A stretch of 8,788 nucleotides of DNA, from the UHGV virus genome UHGV-1374307; one strand, 5' to 3'. Made by a program: the position numbers and the translations under genes. Every line of letters starts with the position of its first letter. Position 1 is the stretch's first letter. Source of the DNA: a virus. This document shows positions 1 through 6,825 of the stretch, in pieces. The notes beneath the pieces were generated by a model. That model worked only from the letters and a program-made list of their open reading frames with translations, was not told the DNA's origin and did no database searches.

Positions 1-26
1 GGATTCGATTTTCGCAGCGGCCTTTT
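1..26. terminator. 3' half of a bidirectional terminator hairpin that spans the window junction
   Basis: CGCAGCGGCC (13-22) is the exact reverse complement of the last 10 nt of the window (8779-8788), leaving a 12-nt loop (1-12) and a downstream TTTT (23-26), if the molecule is circular. Confidence 0.5.
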
Positions 27-27
27 C

Positions 28-56
28 AACATAACGAGTCGTACATTATGCGCACC
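28..56 (-). other. dif-like Xer recombination site A (candidate attP half)
   Basis: Minus strand reads GGTGCGCATAA-TGTACGACTCG-TTATGTTGAAA. Left arm is 11/11 identical to the E. coli dif XerC arm and right arm 9/11 to the XerD arm TTATGTTAAAT (dif quoted from memory), but the central region is 11 nt instead of 6. Confidence 0.6.
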
Positions 57-96: not shown

Positions 97-330
97 TCAT
101 TGGTCACAGACCGTAATCCACTGGCCCAGGACGTCTTTCAGGCAATGTTGGCATAAATCCAGTTTTAAGCGATTACTGTCACCAAAAATTGAACCGTATC
201 CAGCTAAGTGATTAACAGACAGAAACTCATTGAACTCAATGTCATCTACCACCGTCTTCGCATGGCGACCACAGCGATCGCAGGTCTTCGCACATAACAT
301 TACAGTATCGCTGGATGTGAAAAATTGCAT
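97..330 (-). CDS. Small putative zinc-ribbon protein (77 aa)
   Basis: Strong RBS (AGGAG, 5-nt spacer, ATG 328-330). Cys motifs CAKTCDRCG and CQHC suggest a zinc ribbon. Last gene before the dif-like hairpin region. Confidence 0.55.
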   Translation of the reverse strand: MQFFTSSDTVMLCAKTCDRCGRHAKTVVDDIEFNEFLSVNHLAGYGSIFGDSNRLKLDLCQHCLKDVLGQWITVCDQ

Positions 331-374
331 TTTATCTCCTCGTAATGCTGCCGCGCCGAATCAGCAATAACGCT

Positions 375-446
375 AAAAAAACAGAATTGTTCGGCTTGGC
401 CAACCCCTGACACTAACAAAAGCAAGTTTTGTTATTGTCCGGGGTT
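375..446 (-). other. Structured intergenic region between the two accessory genes (hairpins plus T7 run); possible terminator
   Basis: AACAAAA-GCAAG-TTTTGTT hairpin (415-433) nested in AACCCC...GGGGTT (402-446); 8-bp palindrome TTGGCCAA (396-403); A7 run at 375-381, which is a T7 run on the coding strand. Confidence 0.3.
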
Positions 447-447
447 A

Positions 448-756
448 TCATATAAACCAATAGACCGTCCTTACGCCATTCTGGTTATCAATAACATAGC
501 CGCATTGTTTCCTTAAAAATTCTTCTGCTAAATCAATGGCTTTTACAGAAATCTCATAAGAAGGAAGTAAAGTGTATCCTTTCCCTTCACTGGCAGCTGC
601 TTTGATCGCATCCAGAGTATTATCAATCAGTAACAGAGCAAGTGATGCTTCATTTACCTGAGCCGAAGAACTTCTGGCTGCAAGTGTCATTGTTTTTGCT
701 TCTTCCGCTGTAATCGTTCGTTCTGCCAGAGCAGATAAAATCCCATAAGAATCCAT
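448..756 (-). CDS. Hypothetical protein (102 aa), accessory gene downstream of gIV
   Basis: ATG 754-756 preceded by TTGGGGTAACTA; no paralog in Ff. No family recognised by eye. Confidence 0.5.
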   Translation of the reverse strand: MDSYGILSALAERTITAEEAKTMTLAARSSSAQVNEASLALLLIDNTLDAIKAAASEGKGYTLLPSYEISVKAIDLAEEFLRKQCGYVIDNQNGVRTVYWFI

Positions 757-836: not shown

Positions 837-2091
837 GAATGATATGTGCTGTAAGCAAAATATACATAATACGCTGTTCATTGCTGTCTGCCTTGCTACT
901 GAAAATCCAGCCTATAAGAGGAATTTTACTTATAACTGGAACTGAACGCTCGGCATTGCTGAACGATGAATCGATAAGCCCCCCCAATAACAACGTCTGA
1001 CCATCCTTAATCTGGACTGTCGTCTGAATCTGGCGCTGATTAGTAATAATATCGGATGCCTGATCATCATTGCTGATTGAATCAGCGCGAGTGTCGATAG
1101 TCAGAACTAGTTGCCCGTTACCCATGACAACAGGCGTTACCTTGAGAGAAACGCCAACATCATGACGCTCGATAGTCTGAAACGGATTATTTACCCCGGC
1201 AGATTCGCCCGTTACCTTTCCGGTGATAAACGGCACATTCTTACCTACGGAAATGTAACCAGTCTGACCAGACTGAGTAAGAATACGCGGCGTTGAAATC
1301 ACCTTAGAGCGTGAATTACTCTGGACAGCACGCAGAGACAGCGCCAACACGTTACCATCAAAAATACCAAAAGAACCGCCCGCCGTAGAAAGAGCGCTAC
1401 CCAGTGCAGAAGTATTAAAGCCCCCCGCAACCTTATGACCGGATGCAGAACCTGCCGCAAACGATAAATCAACGCCATCAGACAAGCTGGTTTCAAACAT
1501 CAGCGACTGAATGAGAACCTGATCGCGGGCAACATCCACAGAATTGATAAAATCGGACAGAACCGGCAGCAGCTCGTCAGGCGCAGAAACAATCAGCGAG
1601 TTATTGCCTGGATAATCCACGACATTACCACCACCATTAGAATCAAGATAAATTTTAATCAGTTGCTGAACATCGGACGATCTAACTTTTGTCAGCTTAA
1701 AATTTCTGACCGTAAGCGCCACAGGTACTGGCTGGTAAGATGGCTCAGAAGGAAAAGTATCATAAGACTGGTTATCAGAATCATCGGAATCCGAAACCAT
1801 CTGTGAAGGTAATTTAGACGGCAAAGAGACTACCGCAGGATTGCCAGAAAGCATGACAAAACCGTTAGCATTCAGAACAGACTTAAAGAAATCATCAATA
1901 TTTGCTGGATTAACATCAGCATTAAATACGGTTACGTTTCCTTTAATATCAGGATTAACAATAACAGGCTTGCCAGTTTTTGAAGAATACCACTGAACAA
2001 ATGAGCGAACAGATGAATTATTTAAATTAACAGTTTCAGCAGAAACGCAGAATGAATAGGCAAATAAAAAAGCAACAATAACAGAGCGCAT
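826..2091 (-). CDS. IV: Outer-membrane secretin pIV (421 aa)
   Basis: Signal peptide MRSVIVAFLFAYSFCVSA; secretin motifs shared with Ff pIV (VPFITGKVTGESAGVNNPFQTIERHDVG; DGQTLLLGGL; ISKIPLIGWIFSS). Preferred start ATG 2089-2091 with AGGAG 9 nt upstream; the track ORF is extended upstream to 2184. Confidence 0.95.
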   Translation of the reverse strand: MRSVIVAFLFAYSFCVSAETVNLNNSSVRSFVQWYSSKTGKPVIVNPDIKGNVTVFNADVNPANIDDFFKSVLNANGFVMLSGNPAVVSLPSKLPSQMVSDSDDSDNQSYDTFPSEPSYQPVPVALTVRNFKLTKVRSSDVQQLIKIYLDSNGGGNVVDYPGNNSLIVSAPDELLPVLSDFINSVDVARDQVLIQSLMFETSLSDGVDLSFAAGSASGHKVAGGFNTSALGSALSTAGGSFGIFDGNVLALSLRAVQSNSRSKVISTPRILTQSGQTGYISVGKNVPFITGKVTGESAGVNNPFQTIERHDVGVSLKVTPVVMGNGQLVLTIDTRADSISNDDQASDIITNQRQIQTTVQIKDGQTLLLGGLIDSSFSNAERSVPVISKIPLIGWIFSSKADSNEQRIMYILLTAHIIRPL

Positions 2092-2098
2092 AATAATA

Positions 2099-2473
2099 TT
2101 ACTCCTGACAGGTAACAGTCTGTAAATAACGGCCTTTTCTAATAACAACACGACAGGCATCTTTAATATCAACGGAATAACCATCTTTAATCAAATCAAA
2201 ATACTGATATTTCATACCTTTTGCATCAACAAACGTAACGGAAACGTCAAAGCCAAGTTGTGAAAAAGAATTAATAGAAAGTCGGGGTAAGTCACTGGAC
2301 GAATCAGGCGTTACCGCCCTCGCCTGTTCAGCATAAGCAGATTTAATAGCTGAGATTTCATCAACATTCTTTCCAGACTGGAGCCAGAAACCAAACGCAA
2401 GCCCCAGCGCCAAAAAAGAAAGCATTAATATAAGACGGTTCGATTTGCGAAAATAAATTTTAGTGAGGCGCAT
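2099..2473 (-). CDS. XI: pXI, in-frame internal restart in gene I (124 aa, membrane-anchored C-terminal part)
   Basis: Internal Met at codon 241 (ATG 2471-2473), MRLTKIYFRKSNRLILMLSFLALGLAFGFW; Ff pXI also starts at Met241 with MKLTKIYLKKFSRV... (from memory). Confidence 0.6.
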   Translation of the reverse strand: MRLTKIYFRKSNRLILMLSFLALGLAFGFWLQSGKNVDEISAIKSAYAEQARAVTPDSSSDLPRLSINSFSQLGFDVSVTFVDAKGMKYQYFDLIKDGYSVDIKDACRVVIRKGRYLQTVTCQE

Positions 2474-3193
2474 ATAATAATTAAATCCTCTGTGAACAGA
2501 AAATTGACCGTGCGTGATAAATGGTGGCAAAAGCGAAAATGCGCCATGAGGATAATTATCTGTGAACGCTTGTTTGGTATTGTAAGCAGAATAAAGAGAT
2601 TTTCCTGTATATATCCATTTATCAACAGTGATTGAATTAACATTGTCACCATATTTGACAATGCCAAAGTGTACCTTTGGTAGAGAAAATCTCGCCCCTG
2701 AAACCAAATTCATAATGGAGCCAACAAAAGGAATGTTTAATTTATCTGAACGGCGACAATAAACAACATGCTCAGCAAGCGCCAGACGAGCTTGCTTATC
2801 CATTATCGAAATATCCTGAATCAAAAATATAATATCCCAGCCTAATTTTCTGGCATGTAAAAACCAGTCAATAACAGGTTGTCTGTCTTTATCACCCCAT
2901 GAGCGGGAATTAAACCAAGTACCACATTCATCAAGTACAAGGAGGCCATTACGGGATTCATCGTAAGATGCATTCCCAATACCAATAGCAAGTAAATCAT
3001 TTAATGAAGGCTTGTCAGGAATGCGAATAACGCGCGTTTTTTTCGCATAACGCCCAACCATAGGCATATTATGCAATTTAAGATCAAGATTAGTGGCAAC
3101 AGGACAACCCTTAGCAAGTCTTTCCTGTATTCTGGAAACACTAACAAGTGTCTTGCCTGAGCCTAATTTGCCTGTTACTACATAAACCGCCAT
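2099..3193 (-). CDS. I: Assembly ATPase pI (Zot-like), 364 aa
   Basis: MAVYVVTGKLGSGKTLVS (Walker A), LVLDECGTWFN, IDWFLHARKLGWDIIFL, EHVVYCRR: strong similarity to Ff pI across the N-terminal domain as I recall it. ATG 3191-3193 abuts the gVI stop (TAAATG). Confidence 0.95.
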   Translation of the reverse strand: MAVYVVTGKLGSGKTLVSVSRIQERLAKGCPVATNLDLKLHNMPMVGRYAKKTRVIRIPDKPSLNDLLAIGIGNASYDESRNGLLVLDECGTWFNSRSWGDKDRQPVIDWFLHARKLGWDIIFLIQDISIMDKQARLALAEHVVYCRRSDKLNIPFVGSIMNLVSGARFSLPKVHFGIVKYGDNVNSITVDKWIYTGKSLYSAYNTKQAFTDNYPHGAFSLLPPFITHGQFSVHRGFNYYMRLTKIYFRKSNRLILMLSFLALGLAFGFWLQSGKNVDEISAIKSAYAEQARAVTPDSSSDLPRLSINSFSQLGFDVSVTFVDAKGMKYQYFDLIKDGYSVDIKDACRVVIRKGRYLQTVTCQE

Positions 3194-3535
3194 TTAAATC
3201 ACCCTGTTTGCATAATCAAGAAATTTTTGTTTTAAATCGAAAACAAAAACACTGATACGAGTAACCATAATAACGTTAACACACGCCTGAAAATGGTCAG
3301 GCAATACAGACGCCATTAAATGGGAGAAATCAGCAGGTAAACCGTTATACATGACCTCAGCAAGGTACTGCATTAAAAGCGTAACAGTTGTTGTAATTAA
3401 TGCGACCAATGCAAAGGCGATTAATCCTGTTCTGGTAGCAAGTCGAGCTAAAAAACTCGCCACATAGCCAATAAACAAAGGAACAAGACCAATAAGAAAA
3501 CGCAACAATGCAGGAATACCCAATAATAAAGGCAT
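3194..3535 (-). CDS. VI: Minor coat protein pVI (113 aa)
   Basis: [14 protein letters not shown]... vs Ff pVI MPVLLGIPLLLRFL...; C-terminal FVFDLKQK vs Ff FIFDVKQK. Preferred start is ATG 3533-3535, overlapping the gIII stop (TGATG); the track begins one codon earlier at GTG 3538. Confidence 0.9.
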   Translation of the reverse strand: MPLLLGIPALLRFLIGLVPLFIGYVASFLARLATRTGLIAFALVALITTTVTLLMQYLAEVMYNGLPADFSHLMASVLPDHFQACVNVIMVTRISVFVFDLKQKFLDYANRVI

Positions 3536-4782
3536 CACTCACCCCCTTTGCGAAGCAATGAAGTTAAAGAAGTAAAGACATACCAGAACGTAAGGCAATA
3601 AAAAACCCATGAAAGAACATCTTTAATAGTCAGTAATTTATCGCAACCAATATCAATCTGATAAACCTCTCCGGGAAATATAATAAAATCAGAGCAGCCG
3701 TTACCATTGGGTAAATTAGGCAGCATAGCACCTTTATTTAAAAATGCTTCCCATAAAGCACCGTGAGAATCCTTTTCAATTCCCAATTCAGAATCAGCCA
3801 AAGTAGAAGCGCCATCTAATTCAGAGTCGCCCTTTCCATAACGAGAATCACCACCTGAAGGGTCAGCAAAACGGCCAGCCCCCCGCGTAAGATTGTTAAT
3901 GGAATCGTCAAGACGATTTATATTATTCCTGGTTTGTTCATCGGCATTTTTTTTATCATCTGATGAAGTGTCTTTCTCCGTTAATTTATCATGAATATCG
4001 CTGGCTATTTTGGGTGAAGCACCTTCGATCGCAGACTGAATATCACCTTTAGAAAGACTGGAACCACTAGAGTCACCGCCAGAACTACCGCCAGAACTAC
4101 CGCCACCGGACTCACCACCGCCAGACTCACCACCGCTGGACTCACCACTGCCAGACTCACCACCACCATTTTGGGGGGTTGAGGGTTTATCAGAGGGGTC
4201 AGCTACAGCACCTGTAGGCTTCCATGTTGCAGCGCAAACAGTACCATCACCCTGACAAACAATGACACCAGTAGCCTCATATTCACAGCCGTTATAGTAG
4301 ATATAGCGACCACCATCATATGAATCAACATTATTAAATACACCTTCTTCTGGCGGCTTCGCTTCACAAATTTCTTCTGGTGTCGGGTCAGTAGGTTTTT
4401 CATCAGGAACAGAACGCTGAATATTACCAACAATATAAGCCGTTAAAGACCAATATTTATCCTTCTGCCCTGGTGAATCGCTGTAAGTACAATCGCCAGT
4501 AAAAACAAGACGGAATTCAGAATCAGGCCAGATACCCTCATAAGTTGGTTTAATCCGAGTAAATACACTCTGAGCACTGGATTTAGCACCCTGACAAGCG
4601 GAGGCCTGCATAGCAGCATCAATATAGTAAACCGTTATCTTAGAGCCATCCTGATTGGTTATTTGCTTACTTTCAGCGTAGGCAGAACTTTGATAAGTGG
4701 ATTTAGTAATGCTTTCCCATGACTCAGCATGTGAAAAAGGAGAAATGAGGACAGCGGAAAGAATTAATATTTTCCTTCTCAT
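3535..4782 (-). CDS. III: Adsorption/minor coat protein pIII (415 aa)
   Basis: True start is the internal ATG at 4780-4782 ([19 protein letters not shown] signal peptide); the track ORF is an upstream read-through. Contains an Ff N1-like TolA-binding motif ([31 protein letters not shown] vs Ff RYANYEGCLWNATGVVVCTGDETQCYGTWVP), a Gly/Ser/Glu-rich linker, and a C-terminal membrane anchor (CDKLL...[20 protein letters not shown] vs Ff CDKINLF...FMYVFSTFANILRNKES). Confidence 0.9.
4072..4168 (-). repeat. Tandem imperfect 12-15 bp repeats encoding the pIII Gly/Ser/Glu linker
   Basis: Plus strand reads CACCGCCAGAACTAC CGCCAGAACTAC CGCCACCGGACTCACCACCGCCAGACTCACCACCGCTGGACTCACCACTGCCAGACTCACCACC; encodes [31 protein letters not shown]. 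Confidence 0.8.
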
Positions 4783-4791
4783 AGTAACCCG

Positions 4792-4819
4792 CTTTAATAA
4801 AGGGGCAACGAGTGCCCCT
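4792..4819 (-). terminator. Rho-independent terminator between gVIII and gIII
   Basis: On the coding strand: AGGGGCA-CTCGT-TGCCCCT followed by TTATTAAAG, immediately after the gVIII stop and before the gIII start; same position as the strong post-gVIII terminator of Ff phages. Confidence 0.8.
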
Positions 4820-4828
4820 GAGTGAAAT

Positions 4829-5071
4829 TCAAACCGCTTTTGAAGAGAATTTTTTGAAAATACGAATGGCAAGCCCAGCGCCAACCACAGCAACAACAAC
4901 AGGCCATACTTTACCAATGAGATCATTTGCCTGAGTCAACAAAGCATCCATTGCCTGACCTGCATAATCAGTACCACCTGTAGCGCCTTCAGCCGCAAAA
5001 GAACTTGCAGAAATAAAAAGCGCAGTTGAAGCCAAAGCAATTTTATATTTAACAGTAGACAGAATTTTCAT
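4829..5071 (-). CDS. VIII: Major coat protein pVIII precursor (80 aa; signal peptide ending SFA, mature ~54 aa)
   Basis: [26 protein letters not shown] / AEGATGG...[25 protein letters not shown]: signal peptide, acidic N-terminus, hydrophobic core and basic C-terminal tail typical of Ff/IKe coat proteins (the KKFSSKAV tail is IKe-like, from memory). SD GGAG 8 nt upstream of ATG 5069-5071. Confidence 0.95.
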
Positions 5072-5274: not shown

Positions 5275-5592
5275 TTAACCTTTGATCTCTGCGATGCCAC
5301 CATCGGAAGCAACATTATAAGTTACACCTTCCCTACCCTCCATTGACCACGCACGGACATAGACAGGAATTTGAACTAATTTCCCAATGAAAGCATTCGC
5401 CTGGTTCATTAGACCTGCGTTAACGAGAGCCTGAGAAACTCGAATAATAATTTGATCCTGCTTTGTACCACCAAAACCATCAGGTATTTCAAGGCCAATA
5501 CCAATTTCATTATAATAGCCCTGACCATTAACTTTATTACGTTGGCGGGCTCCCAACATTTTACCCTTAACGAAAAGACCATAATTAGACAT
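5275..5592 (-). CDS. V: Putative ssDNA-binding protein at the gene V position (105 aa)
   Basis: ATG at 5590-5592 with AAAGGAAAGTAAT upstream; sits exactly between gII/gX and gVII as in Ff. Sequence shows no clear similarity to Ff pV beyond a loose R...G.GY...L[DE] pattern, so the call rests on synteny. Confidence 0.55.
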   Translation of the reverse strand: MSNYGLFVKGKMLGARQRNKVNGQGYYNEIGIGLEIPDGFGGTKQDQIIIRVSQALVNAGLMNQANAFIGKLVQIPVYVRAWSMEGREGVTYNVASDGGIAEIKG

Positions 5593-5603
5593 ATTACTTT
5601 CCT

Positions 5604-5918
5604 TTAATGCCAGCTACTGGCGTGCGAAATACGGTTGTAATCGAAAATAAAACCTTTCTCATAAATCCATAAGGGGATTTCCGCTGGCTTGGCTTCCAGC
5701 GTTCTTATTAGCGGAACAACGTTATTAGAGTCTGGTGAATCACAATAGAAATTAATATCGATACCGAACGAAAGCAATTCTCTTCTATGGCGATAAAAAG
5801 TGTTATGAGGTAACATTTCTTTCATGTTAGCCCCTTGTTTCCAAAGTAAATAAGTTGACTGTATTTTTCTTGGCAGTTTCGTTATTTTTTCATCACTTAA
5901 AATAGCATTCTGATTCAT
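5604..5918 (-). CDS. X: pX, in-frame internal restart within gene II (C-terminal 104 aa)
   Basis: Internal ATG at 5916-5918 giving MNQNAILSDEK... (Ff pX also begins MN...); preceded on the coding strand by GGGAGAATAGAA (SD GGGAG). Same arrangement as Ff gene X. Confidence 0.65.
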   Translation of the reverse strand: MNQNAILSDEKITKLPRKIQSTYLLWKQGANMKEMLPHNTFYRHRRELLSFGIDINFYCDSPDSNNVVPLIRTLEAKPAEIPLWIYEKGFIFDYNRISHASSWH

Positions 5919-6656
5919 TTCTATTCTCCCTACATATTCAGAGAATAATTGACGTGGTGTTTTCATATTCCAGTTAGCGCCAAGCGTTAAATTTAAATCA
6001 ATAAGCTCAGTTGTTCTTAATGTTAATTCAATACGTAATTTATCTTTCGTCCAGTCCAGTAACCCGGCTCGTACAAACTCTTCGGCTATCTGGTGCCCTT
6101 TTTTACCAGAAACGTGTTCATCATATTTTGAATAAAATTTCAGACTCCATCGACGGGAGTTTTTACCTAAATAAACTGTACCGCCTTTCCCACATGCGCG
6201 ACCATGGCGTGTTTTAGCTTTAAATTCGGCGGCATAAAGCCATGATCTGACATTTTCCAGCGTAGATAATGAATACATGTAATTAATGTCAACACGTGAA
6301 ATTTTATACTGACCTGCCATAACGGCTTTATAAGACGCTAAATCATGAGGAATATTCAATAAGGATAAAATCCTGGCATAGACCGTCAACATGAGCCCTT
6401 GTATATCATCCGACCCAACAACAGAATGCCCCTGCAGAAACTTGGAAGGATTACCATCAATGTACAAATGTGTCGCTTTACCTTCGCCATTAGATCCTAT
6501 CGATCGTACTTTCATCGTTGCTTCATGCGAGCCGCGAACAGTCAGTCGCTTAACGGTTTCCCACTCAATTGCACCGTCAGCATCAACGCTGACAACACTC
6601 CCCGCCGGAAGCGGTTTGTGTGTGCAAGGGAAAATCCCGGTAAGCCAATCGATCAC
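5604..6656 (-). CDS. II: Replication initiation protein pII (rolling-circle nickase)
   Basis: Motifs shared with Ff pII as I recall it: KFLQGHSVVG (Ff KVLQGHNVFG) and C-terminal NNVVPLIR (Ff NNVVPLVR). ORF track starts at GTG 6698 with no Shine-Dalgarno; I prefer the in-frame GTG at 6654-6656, preceded by TTGAGGATTTATTC (GAGGA, 7-nt spacer), giving N-terminus MIDWL like Ff MIDML. Exact start uncertain. Confidence 0.85.
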   Translation of the reverse strand: MIDWLTGIFPCTHKPLPAGSVVSVDADGAIEWETVKRLTVRGSHEATMKVRSIGSNGEGKATHLYIDGNPSKFLQGHSVVGSDDIQGLMLTVYARILSLLNIPHDLASYKAVMAGQYKISRVDINYMYSLSTLENVRSWLYAAEFKAKTRHGRACGKGGTVYLGKNSRRWSLKFYSKYDEHVSGKKGHQIAEEFVRAGLLDWTKDKLRIELTLRTTELIDLNLTLGANWNMKTPRQLFSEYVGRIEMNQNAILSDEKITKLPRKIQSTYLLWKQGANMKEMLPHNTFYRHRRELLSFGIDINFYCDSPDSNNVVPLIRTLEAKPAEIPLWIYEKGFIFDYNRISHASSWH

Positions 6657-6825
6657 GAATAAATCCTCAAAATTGCAAAAATGACGACTTACTAACACAT
6701 GAGTTCAGTAGTTCATTAGTGTTTAAACATTACACCAGTGAGCTAGTGAGTTCAAGAGGCTTGGATGATATGAGTTCATGAGCATGTATACTCACTTCAA
6801 ATATTGCATTGAACGAGCGTAAAAA
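6657..6825. promoter_or_regulatory. Divergent control region between gII and the plus-strand accessory block, with three direct TGAGTTCA repeats
   Basis: TGAGTTCA at 6700-6707, 6747-6754 and 6771-6778, plus AGTGAG half-repeats at 6737-6742 and 6745-6750. The region must contain the gII promoter and the promoter of CDS 6826-7008. No promoter hexamers assigned confidently. Confidence 0.45.

Follow-up and report, generated by a model that had tools for sequence, protein, structure and literature searches.

Two small cargo genes, probably independent of each other, between the secretin gene and attP of a CUS-1/YpfΦ-type filamentous prophage

Introduction

In the filamentous phage CTXΦ, the slot between the morphogenesis genes and attP is occupied by ctxAB (PMC4266046). 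The corresponding slot of YpfΦ and CUS-1 holds two open reading frames (ORFs) common to both phages, YPO2280a and YPO2281, which adjoin attR in the 8.7-kb genome of YpfΦ and were described as having 'no predictable functions' (PMC4266046). YpfΦ and CUS-1 provide a modest in vivo fitness gain to Y. pestis and to invasive E. coli K1, and a review of these phages names the end ORFs as their unexplained part (PMC4266046). Here we analyse two genes of this kind, encoding proteins of 102 and 77 amino acids (aa), which lie near one end of the virus genome UHGV-1374307, an 8,788-nucleotide (nt) stretch of DNA that we refer to as the window.

Small phage-encoded proteins whose genes lie near a dif-like attP are also known as activators of Xer recombination; examples are XafT of TLCΦ, an activator of the helix-turn-helix (HTH) family, and those encoded by other integrative mobile elements exploiting Xer (IMEX). 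A different precedent comes from MqsA-type antitoxins, in which an N-terminal CxxC…CxxC zinc module binds the toxin protein and not DNA. An earlier note, made from the sequence of the window, had put forward an accessory factor for Xer-mediated integration, a toxin-antitoxin pair and an anti-defence protein as candidate roles for the two genes. What is new in the present analysis is that the two genes are unlinked in their distribution, that the comparative evidence would exclude the Xer and toxin-antitoxin readings, and that the 77-aa protein falls into a very large uncurated family, with a gene that appears to move together with attP as a cassette.

Results and discussion

A CUS-1/YpfΦ-type prophage with two conserved end genes

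The ORF map of the window describes a complete filamentous-phage (inovirus) genome, encoded on the minus strand and in inovirus gene order (Table 1). Megablast searches of complete E. coli genomes located the element in dozens of strains, where it often forms tandem copies and adjoins hipBA, and region 60-830 was found at ≥ 99% identity in 49 of 5,426 such genomes, beside hipBA/dif. In strain UM146, a perfect 28-bp dif site marks the prophage junction, 39 bp past the 77-aa gene. The window is a dif-integrating filamentous prophage of the CUS-1/YpfΦ type: it shares with these phages a length of about 8.7 kb, residence at dif, frequent tandem copies, and two ORFs in the same slot after the secretin gene, beside the dif-side att site. 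There is probably no difference from this phage type, the window appearing to be its YpfΦ-length variant, with end ORFs of 98 and 262 aa. By position, gene order and the published description, the 102-aa and 77-aa ORFs are genes of the YPO2280a/YPO2281 type. The earlier note had reckoned with the chance that they might turn out to be ordinary phage proteins of a known lineage, and this proved partly right: catalogues already list both genes, as hypothetical ORFs of YpfΦ/CUS-1 and as members of PHROG families of unknown function. A literature search found no publication naming the two RefSeq accessions or their PHROGs.

Both ORFs are real, conserved genes. They lie downstream of gIV and on the same strand as gII, gV, gVIII, gIII, gVI and gI; the ORF map bore out the earlier picture of two accessory, non-core genes between gIV and attP on the phage strand. 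The placement of the 77-aa gene beside a dif-like attP also holds, its stop codon being 40 nt from the XerC arm. The ribosome-binding sites that the note had found credible for both genes are of unequal quality. That of the 77-aa gene (GAGGAG) is strong, and is partly kept as GAGGGA in the Phytobacter copy, whereas that of the 102-aa gene (GGGG) is weaker. The ratio of nonsynonymous to synonymous substitution rates (Ka/Ks) came to 0.14 when the 102-aa gene was compared with its Salmonella homologue; the 77-aa gene and its Phytobacter homologue gave 0.11. These low ratios indicate that both ORFs are under purifying selection and are true genes rather than chance ORFs. The exact 102-aa and the exact 77-aa protein were each present on at least 1,000 contigs.

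The two genes occur apart from each other

Comparison of related inoviruses revealed three further arrangements of the slot. A Salmonella inovirus (L003/L004), whose gIV is close to that of the window (dN 0.036), has a 103-aa homologue of the 102-aa protein after gIV and no 77-aa gene, followed by a perfect dif. Five other loci, from Phytobacter (L016), from Klebsiella (L018) and at L104, L105 and L107, run from gI-gIV directly into a 77-aa homologue with no 102-aa gene; they belong to lineages whose gIII, gVI, gI and gIV differ from those of the window. At four of them (L016, L104, L105 and L107), dif or the same attP 34-mer lies 40-420 nt past the 77-aa homologue, and at L018 dif lies 3.5 kb from it, past insertion sequence insertions. 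In E. coli 7CC, SCPM-O-B-12142 and A20 (L076-L078), gI-gIV are 85-88% identical to those of the window and both window genes are missing. Their slot holds one unrelated 82-aa ORF (approximately 2092-2342, minus strand) for a very basic protein (pI 11.6) that ends in WWW; this ORF is frameshifted in 7CC. A perfect dif lies nearby in A20, and SCPM-O-B-12142 has a match to the XerC arm.

Judged by the gene content of these relatives, the slot from gIV to attP is a variable cargo locus, and neither gene appears to be needed for their residence at dif. The 1,236 clusters of the wider 77-aa family described below likewise occur without the 102-aa protein, and in the window itself the two genes are 117 nt apart, with a strong conserved hairpin between them. 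It is very likely that the 102-aa and 77-aa genes are independent cargo genes rather than an obligate pair. The slot also appears to be mosaic, because the 102-aa gene is far more diverged from its Salmonella homologue (dS 1.78) than is the adjacent gIV (dS 0.38); by this comparison the 102-aa gene evolves much faster than its neighbour.

In P0014, P0019 and many further database proteins, the N-terminus of the gII replication protein is fused in frame to the C-terminal part of the 102-aa or the 77-aa protein. Such fusions suggest that mini-phage-like or defective copies arise repeatedly through deletion of everything between gII and the end genes.

The 77-aa gene appears to be exchanged together with attP

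Within attP arm 1, GGTGCGCATAATGTA (42-56, minus strand) comprises the XerC arm and half of the dif central region, a match of which 0.01 would be expected by chance. The 34-mer of this arm is also found downstream of the 77-aa homologues of L104 and L105. A GC-rich stem (8770-8788/1-27) spans the ends of the window, between arm 1 and the inverted arm 2. Because the two inverted Xer-like sites flank this stem, the ends of the window fall within the attP hairpin, and closing the circle can restore a forked hairpin in the style of CTXΦ, as has been reported for YpfΦ (PMC4266046).

Approximately 70 nt upstream of the 77-aa ORF lies hairpin I1, which was present upstream of all seven inovirus-borne 77-aa genes compared, with five pairs kept through compensatory changes. 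It is followed by GGTTGGCC(A/G)AGC, which is conserved upstream of every inovirus-borne 77-aa gene (L016, L018 and L104-L107). In a DNA alignment, continuous homology between the window and L016 extended from hairpin I1 through the ∼70-nt leader and the 77-aa gene to the XerC arm. This block, together with the retention of the hairpin in seven copies, points to exchange of the gene among enterobacterial inoviruses along with the genome end; what is exchanged among these dif-integrating phages appears to be a cassette of hairpin, gene and attP. The shared block is the strongest argument for a link between the 77-aa gene and attP. The read-through peptide motif of the spacer before the XerC arm, …ILT[IV]GAHNV…, also occurs in L003 and in the fusion proteins P0004 and P0010.

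Hairpin I1 could terminate the morphogenesis operon, act as a packaging signal or be an element of the minus-strand origin. The second hairpin of the region, I2, has a predicted folding energy of -46.4 kcal/mol (z = -8.3) and no U-tract after it, and is conserved in the Salmonella relative (L003 7927-7975) with a compensatory change from A-U to C-G. The packaging signal of Ff phages directly follows gIV, and by analogy I2 is a candidate packaging signal, or could be an RNA processing or terminator element. No consensus terminator was found by a consensus scan of 1-1000.

The 77-aa protein belongs to a large family of predicted zinc-binding domains

The 77-aa protein matched phrog_5435 over residues 1-77 (E = 4.5e-46) and no Pfam or NCBIfam model. 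A word-indexed search returned few relatives; a full HMMER scan with a six-sequence profile retrieved 1,236 representative clusters (clustered at 50% identity) at E ≤ 1e-3, and 613 at E ≤ 1e-10. We used 147 members to assess conservation, domain content and PHROG membership. All 147 matched phrog_5435, and none had a Pfam model for the zinc domain itself. Sequence profile searches yielded no significant PDB match for either the 77-aa or the 102-aa family, and the former has no sequence relative in the PDB. Across the sample C60 and C63 never vary, C17 and C20 are kept in ≥ 90% of members, and C13 and C75 are not conserved. The CxxxCxxC...CxxC pattern read earlier from the window thus loses its first cysteine (C13), and what stands is a pair of conserved CxxC knuckles, C17xxC20 and C60xxC63, that together form a Cys4 zinc-binding signature. 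The conserved core of the family reads CDRCGR…E(F)xEF…GYGSxFGDG…DLCQHC…LGxW. Its members are acidic, with a median net charge of -4, a median pI of 4.8 and a pI below 6 in 92%.

Approximately 38% of the top family matches are no longer than 90 aa and are hence stand-alone, and in longer members the zinc domain is N-terminal. Pfam identified C-terminal fusions to Xre_MbcA_ParS_C (PF09722) in eight of the 147 sampled members, to DUF4926 in two and to TacA in one, and NCBIfam names assigned seven to RES/Xre antitoxins and one to VapB; antitoxin-type C-terminal domains were present in ∼8% of the sample. A weak match to an HI1420-type antidote was seen at a separate genomic locus (L020). On the short contigs that carry fused members, no co-directional toxin gene followed them where the flanks could be read, and the neighbours were plasmid-type genes (ParA/ParB, SNase-type nuclease and TniQ). 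Likewise, no gene recurred as a neighbour in 57 genomic family loci from many phyla. Plasmid-borne homologues occur on Klebsiella IncF plasmids, small Proteus/Providencia plasmids and plasmids of Ralstonia, Variovorax, Polaromonas and Shinella, one of them near F-type leading-region genes. A further 70 IMG/VR viral contigs, from 4 to 460 kb in size, carry homologues, next to what by eye are polymerases, terminases and methyltransferases. The family thus extends over chromosomes, plasmids and tailed phages, in which it is common, and is abundant in environmental bacteria and in archaeal metagenome-assembled genomes (MAGs). As far as sequence can tell, the 77-aa protein represents, in stand-alone form, a predicted zinc-binding domain that is acidic, has four cysteines and defines a large, uncurated family.

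Several further observations were made on relatives of the 77-aa protein. On the 7-kb plasmid pZF2-7kb of Proteus terrae (L012), one of the small Proteus/Providencia plasmids, the 77-aa homologue is divergent from a large defence-like SIR2-family gene (region 1880-4940); the same plasmid also carries a RelE/ParE pair. Among the longer relatives P0029-P0168, many of which are beta-proteobacterial, 'FDPxxHGGEFP' is conserved after the zinc domain, and in another subgroup 'DDPFDPxHK…AYQxYQ' is conserved there; both look like linear interaction motifs. Finally, on contig JARKOR010000214.1 (L015), which bears a Candidatus Nanosynbacter MAG label, a 77-aa gene with 100% identity to that of the window precedes a perfect E. 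coli dif; this contig very probably comes from an enterobacterium and was mis-binned into a Saccharibacteria MAG.

The 102-aa protein is confined to one phage lineage

The 102-aa protein matched phrog_4115 over residues 1-102 (E = 2e-68). Both phrog_4115 and phrog_5435 are annotated 'unknown function', and membership is uninformative on role. The protein is acidic (pI 4.7). In its AlphaFold model (pLDDT 72), helices at the N-terminus are followed by a C-terminal unit of helix, strand, helix and hairpin; the model describes a predicted acidic alpha/beta protein. Word-indexed searches of 5.8 billion proteins, with the single sequence and with a profile, found homologues in this phage lineage only. 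Searches of IMG/VR and of plasmids agreed with this restriction, tblastn on plasmids giving two records only, both at 100% identity, namely a 7.9-kb Salmonella record and one large E. coli plasmid. The gene is confined to CUS-1/YpfΦ-type inoviruses and their Salmonella relative, and the most likely role of its product is a phage-specific interaction with the host or with a competing element.

For both proteins, scans with Pfam, NCBIfam and PADLOC produced sub-threshold noise only, and neither matched a toxin model in these collections. The remote-homology and structure searches for which the earlier note had called were run and returned no informative homologue; fold searches gave no informative match for either protein. 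Judged by eye, neither has a signal peptide or a transmembrane segment.

Possible roles of the two genes

We propose that the 102-aa and 77-aa genes were acquired independently as accessory ('moron') genes and occupy the variable slot from the gIV-ending operon to the dif-like attP, that both would be unnecessary for Xer-mediated integration, and that the 77-aa protein may bind protein and not DNA in the service of the mobile element, with an antitoxin-like, counter-defence or establishment role. Protein binding is suggested by the acidity of the 77-aa protein, by the extreme conservation of its core across phyla and by the fusion of some relatives to the toxin-binding modules of antitoxins. 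The N-terminal zinc domain of MqsA offers a precedent for this mode of binding, although no sequence similarity to MqsA was detected and neither Pfam nor NCBIfam returned a YgiT/MqsA-type match. The comparison with type II antitoxins has a similar limit: domains of the Xre/MbcA/ParS (RES-Xre), TacA and VapB antitoxins lie C-terminal to the zinc domain in some relatives, whereas the window protein consists of the zinc domain only, with no toxin-binding domain and no adjacent toxin gene. Small size, acidity, carriage by a mobile element and location in a variable slot are circumstantial traits that fit anti-defence, and on sequence grounds an anti-defence or protein-binding role is plausible. 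We give the account as a whole, that of independent cargo genes together with a protein-binding role of the 77-aa protein in conflict, about an even chance of being correct; the protein-binding role taken by itself is put forward tentatively, and is possible rather than probable. More speculative still, and rather unlikely as stated, is the generalization that the 77-aa family consists of acidic zinc proteins which, alone or fused to the toxin-binding modules of antitoxins, serve mobile elements as a protein-binding counter-measure, and that inoviruses swap hairpin, gene and attP. If this were true, the counter-measure could be directed at toxin-antitoxin or abortive-infection systems of the host, or at further defence and stress factors.

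Four points weigh against our proposal. No informative homologue gives a function to the 102-aa or the 77-aa protein. A consensus scan of 1-1000 found no sigma-70 consensus promoter. The N-terminal domain in antitoxin fusions is usually DNA-binding, which by analogy would favour a regulator. Finally, the 77-aa gene lies beside attP in at least four inovirus lineages, and this could reflect function rather than the architecture of the slot.

As a regulator, the 77-aa protein would be a small DNA-binding protein that controls phage or cargo transcription, or that acts on folded single-stranded phage DNA; in variants of this idea it would be the stand-alone DNA-binding half of a type II antitoxin, or a structure-specific DNA binder. 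Besides the N-terminal position of the zinc domain in fused relatives, where antitoxins usually carry their DNA-binding domain, the best fold matches are consistent with this role, being PARP-type DNA-nick-binding zinc fingers, albeit weak ones, and so is the location of the gene beside conserved DNA hairpins and attP. However, the zinc domain is acidic, in which it differs from the typical DNA-binding domains of antitoxins, and its core is near-invariant; both properties argue against operator-specific DNA binding, and we regard a regulator as unlikely.

An Xer accessory factor acting at attP, which would modulate XerC, XerD or FtsK or stabilize the folded attP, is a still weaker candidate. 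The 77-aa gene is the last before attP/dif in CUS-1/YpfΦ, L016, L104/L105 and L107, and the block-wise conservation of DNA from the hairpin to the XerC arm would suit such a factor, whose role would account for the gene moving along with attP. Yet relatives without the gene reside at a perfect dif (the Salmonella inovirus L003/L004, and A20) or have a match to the XerC arm (SCPM-O-B-12142). Nor does the wider family sit near Xer sites: a dif-like site was present within 4 kb at only three of its 57 genomic loci, all three enterobacterial and one of them a MAG contig with a copy of the window gene itself, and the family is common in tailed phages. With XafT, the 77-aa gene shares its adjacency to attP, but Pfam returned nothing significant for its product, the HTH family of XafT included, and relatives without the gene are still at dif. 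An Xer factor, as suggested by the earlier note, is thus not supported and appears very improbable.

Scarcely more can be said for lysogenic-conversion or virulence effectors that act on the animal host, to which the correspondence of the slot with that of ctxAB and the reported phage-dependent in vivo fitness effects (PMC4266046) might point. The window proteins are unrelated to those of ctxAB and have no export signals, signal peptides and transmembrane segments being absent by eye, and members of the 77-aa family abound in environmental bacteria, in archaeal MAGs and in tailed phages; we consider effectors most improbable. Least probable of all is the toxin-antitoxin (addiction) pair of the earlier note, which would stabilize the episomal or integrated phage and which the small size, adjacency and shared orientation of the two genes at one end of a mobile element, and the antitoxin fusions of 77-aa relatives, might bring to mind, since each gene occurs without the other and the two form no conserved bicistronic unit, the 117-nt gap between them holds a conserved hairpin, neither protein matched a toxin or PADLOC model, and the 77-aa protein is without the toxin-binding C-terminal module of its fused relatives.

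The 102-aa and 77-aa genes therefore warrant separate study, an integration factor or addiction module being unlikely for either. One biochemical result on the 77-aa protein, such as a partner or a dependence on zinc, would annotate many hundreds of phage and plasmid protein clusters, given how large and uncurated its family on mobile elements is.

Table 1. Positions of genes and sequence elements in the window
Feature	Position	Strand	Remarks
attP arm 1, GGTGCGCATAA-TGTACGACTCG-TTATGTTGAAA	24-56	minus	XerC arm identical to E. coli dif; XerD-like arm displaced
Displaced XerD-like arm	24-34		shifted ∼5 nt relative to dif
Spacer, 77-aa stop codon (97-99) to XerC arm	57-96	minus	40 nt; DNA conserved between window and L016
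77-aa ORF	97-330	minus	ATG start; RefSeq WP_001159442.1, hypothetical protein in E. coli prophages
Shine-Dalgarno GAGGAG, 77-aa gene	336-341	minus	strong; 5 nt before ATG; read from sequence
Hairpin I1, ∼19 bp	402-446	minus	inverted repeat; RNA fold z = -4.1; directly after 102-aa stop
102-aa ORF	448-756	minus	ATG start; RefSeq WP_000378924.1, hypothetical protein in E. coli prophages
Shine-Dalgarno GGGG, 102-aa gene	763-766	minus	weak; 6 nt before ATG; read from sequence
Hairpin I2, 20-nt arms	782-830	minus	inverted repeat; overlaps gIV stop, precedes 102-aa ORF
gIV secretin	826-2184	minus	ORF map
gI/Zot protein	2099-3193	minus	ORF map
gVI	3194-3538	minus	ORF map
gIII attachment protein	3535-4926	minus	ORF map
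Major coat (gVIII)	4829-5071	minus	ORF map
gV	5275-5592	minus	ORF map
gII replication protein	5604-6698	minus	ORF map
attP arm 2, inverted degenerate Xer site GATGCGCACAA-TGACG-TTATGCTAAAG	8751-8777	plus	beyond GC-rich stem

The other end of the genome

Variable cargo is also found at the other end of the genome (7657-8743), where the window has the 98-aa and 262-aa ORFs; by eye, the C-terminal half of the latter looks like several membrane segments. UM146 instead carries a putative zinc-binding protein of the ECs_2282 family and a 159-aa ORF in this region (L002 11550-12304). The ECs_2282 family was considered as a relative of the 77-aa protein and rejected (hhalign probability 3%).

Next to this cargo, a 62-nt segment (7525-7586) shares 92% identity with the 'major intergenic region' of Escherichia phage If1, and 45 nt of this segment share 96% identity with Alteromonas phage phiAFP1. 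Its retention in inoviruses that are otherwise unrelated suggests that it is an origin or another cis-acting element. The segment borders the variable left-end cargo, most E. coli copies matching the window only to ∼7520-7594. As regards copy number, E. coli EC5502 (NZ_CP092647.1) has 16-17 separate places that match the phage, indicating a very high number of tandem or dispersed copies.

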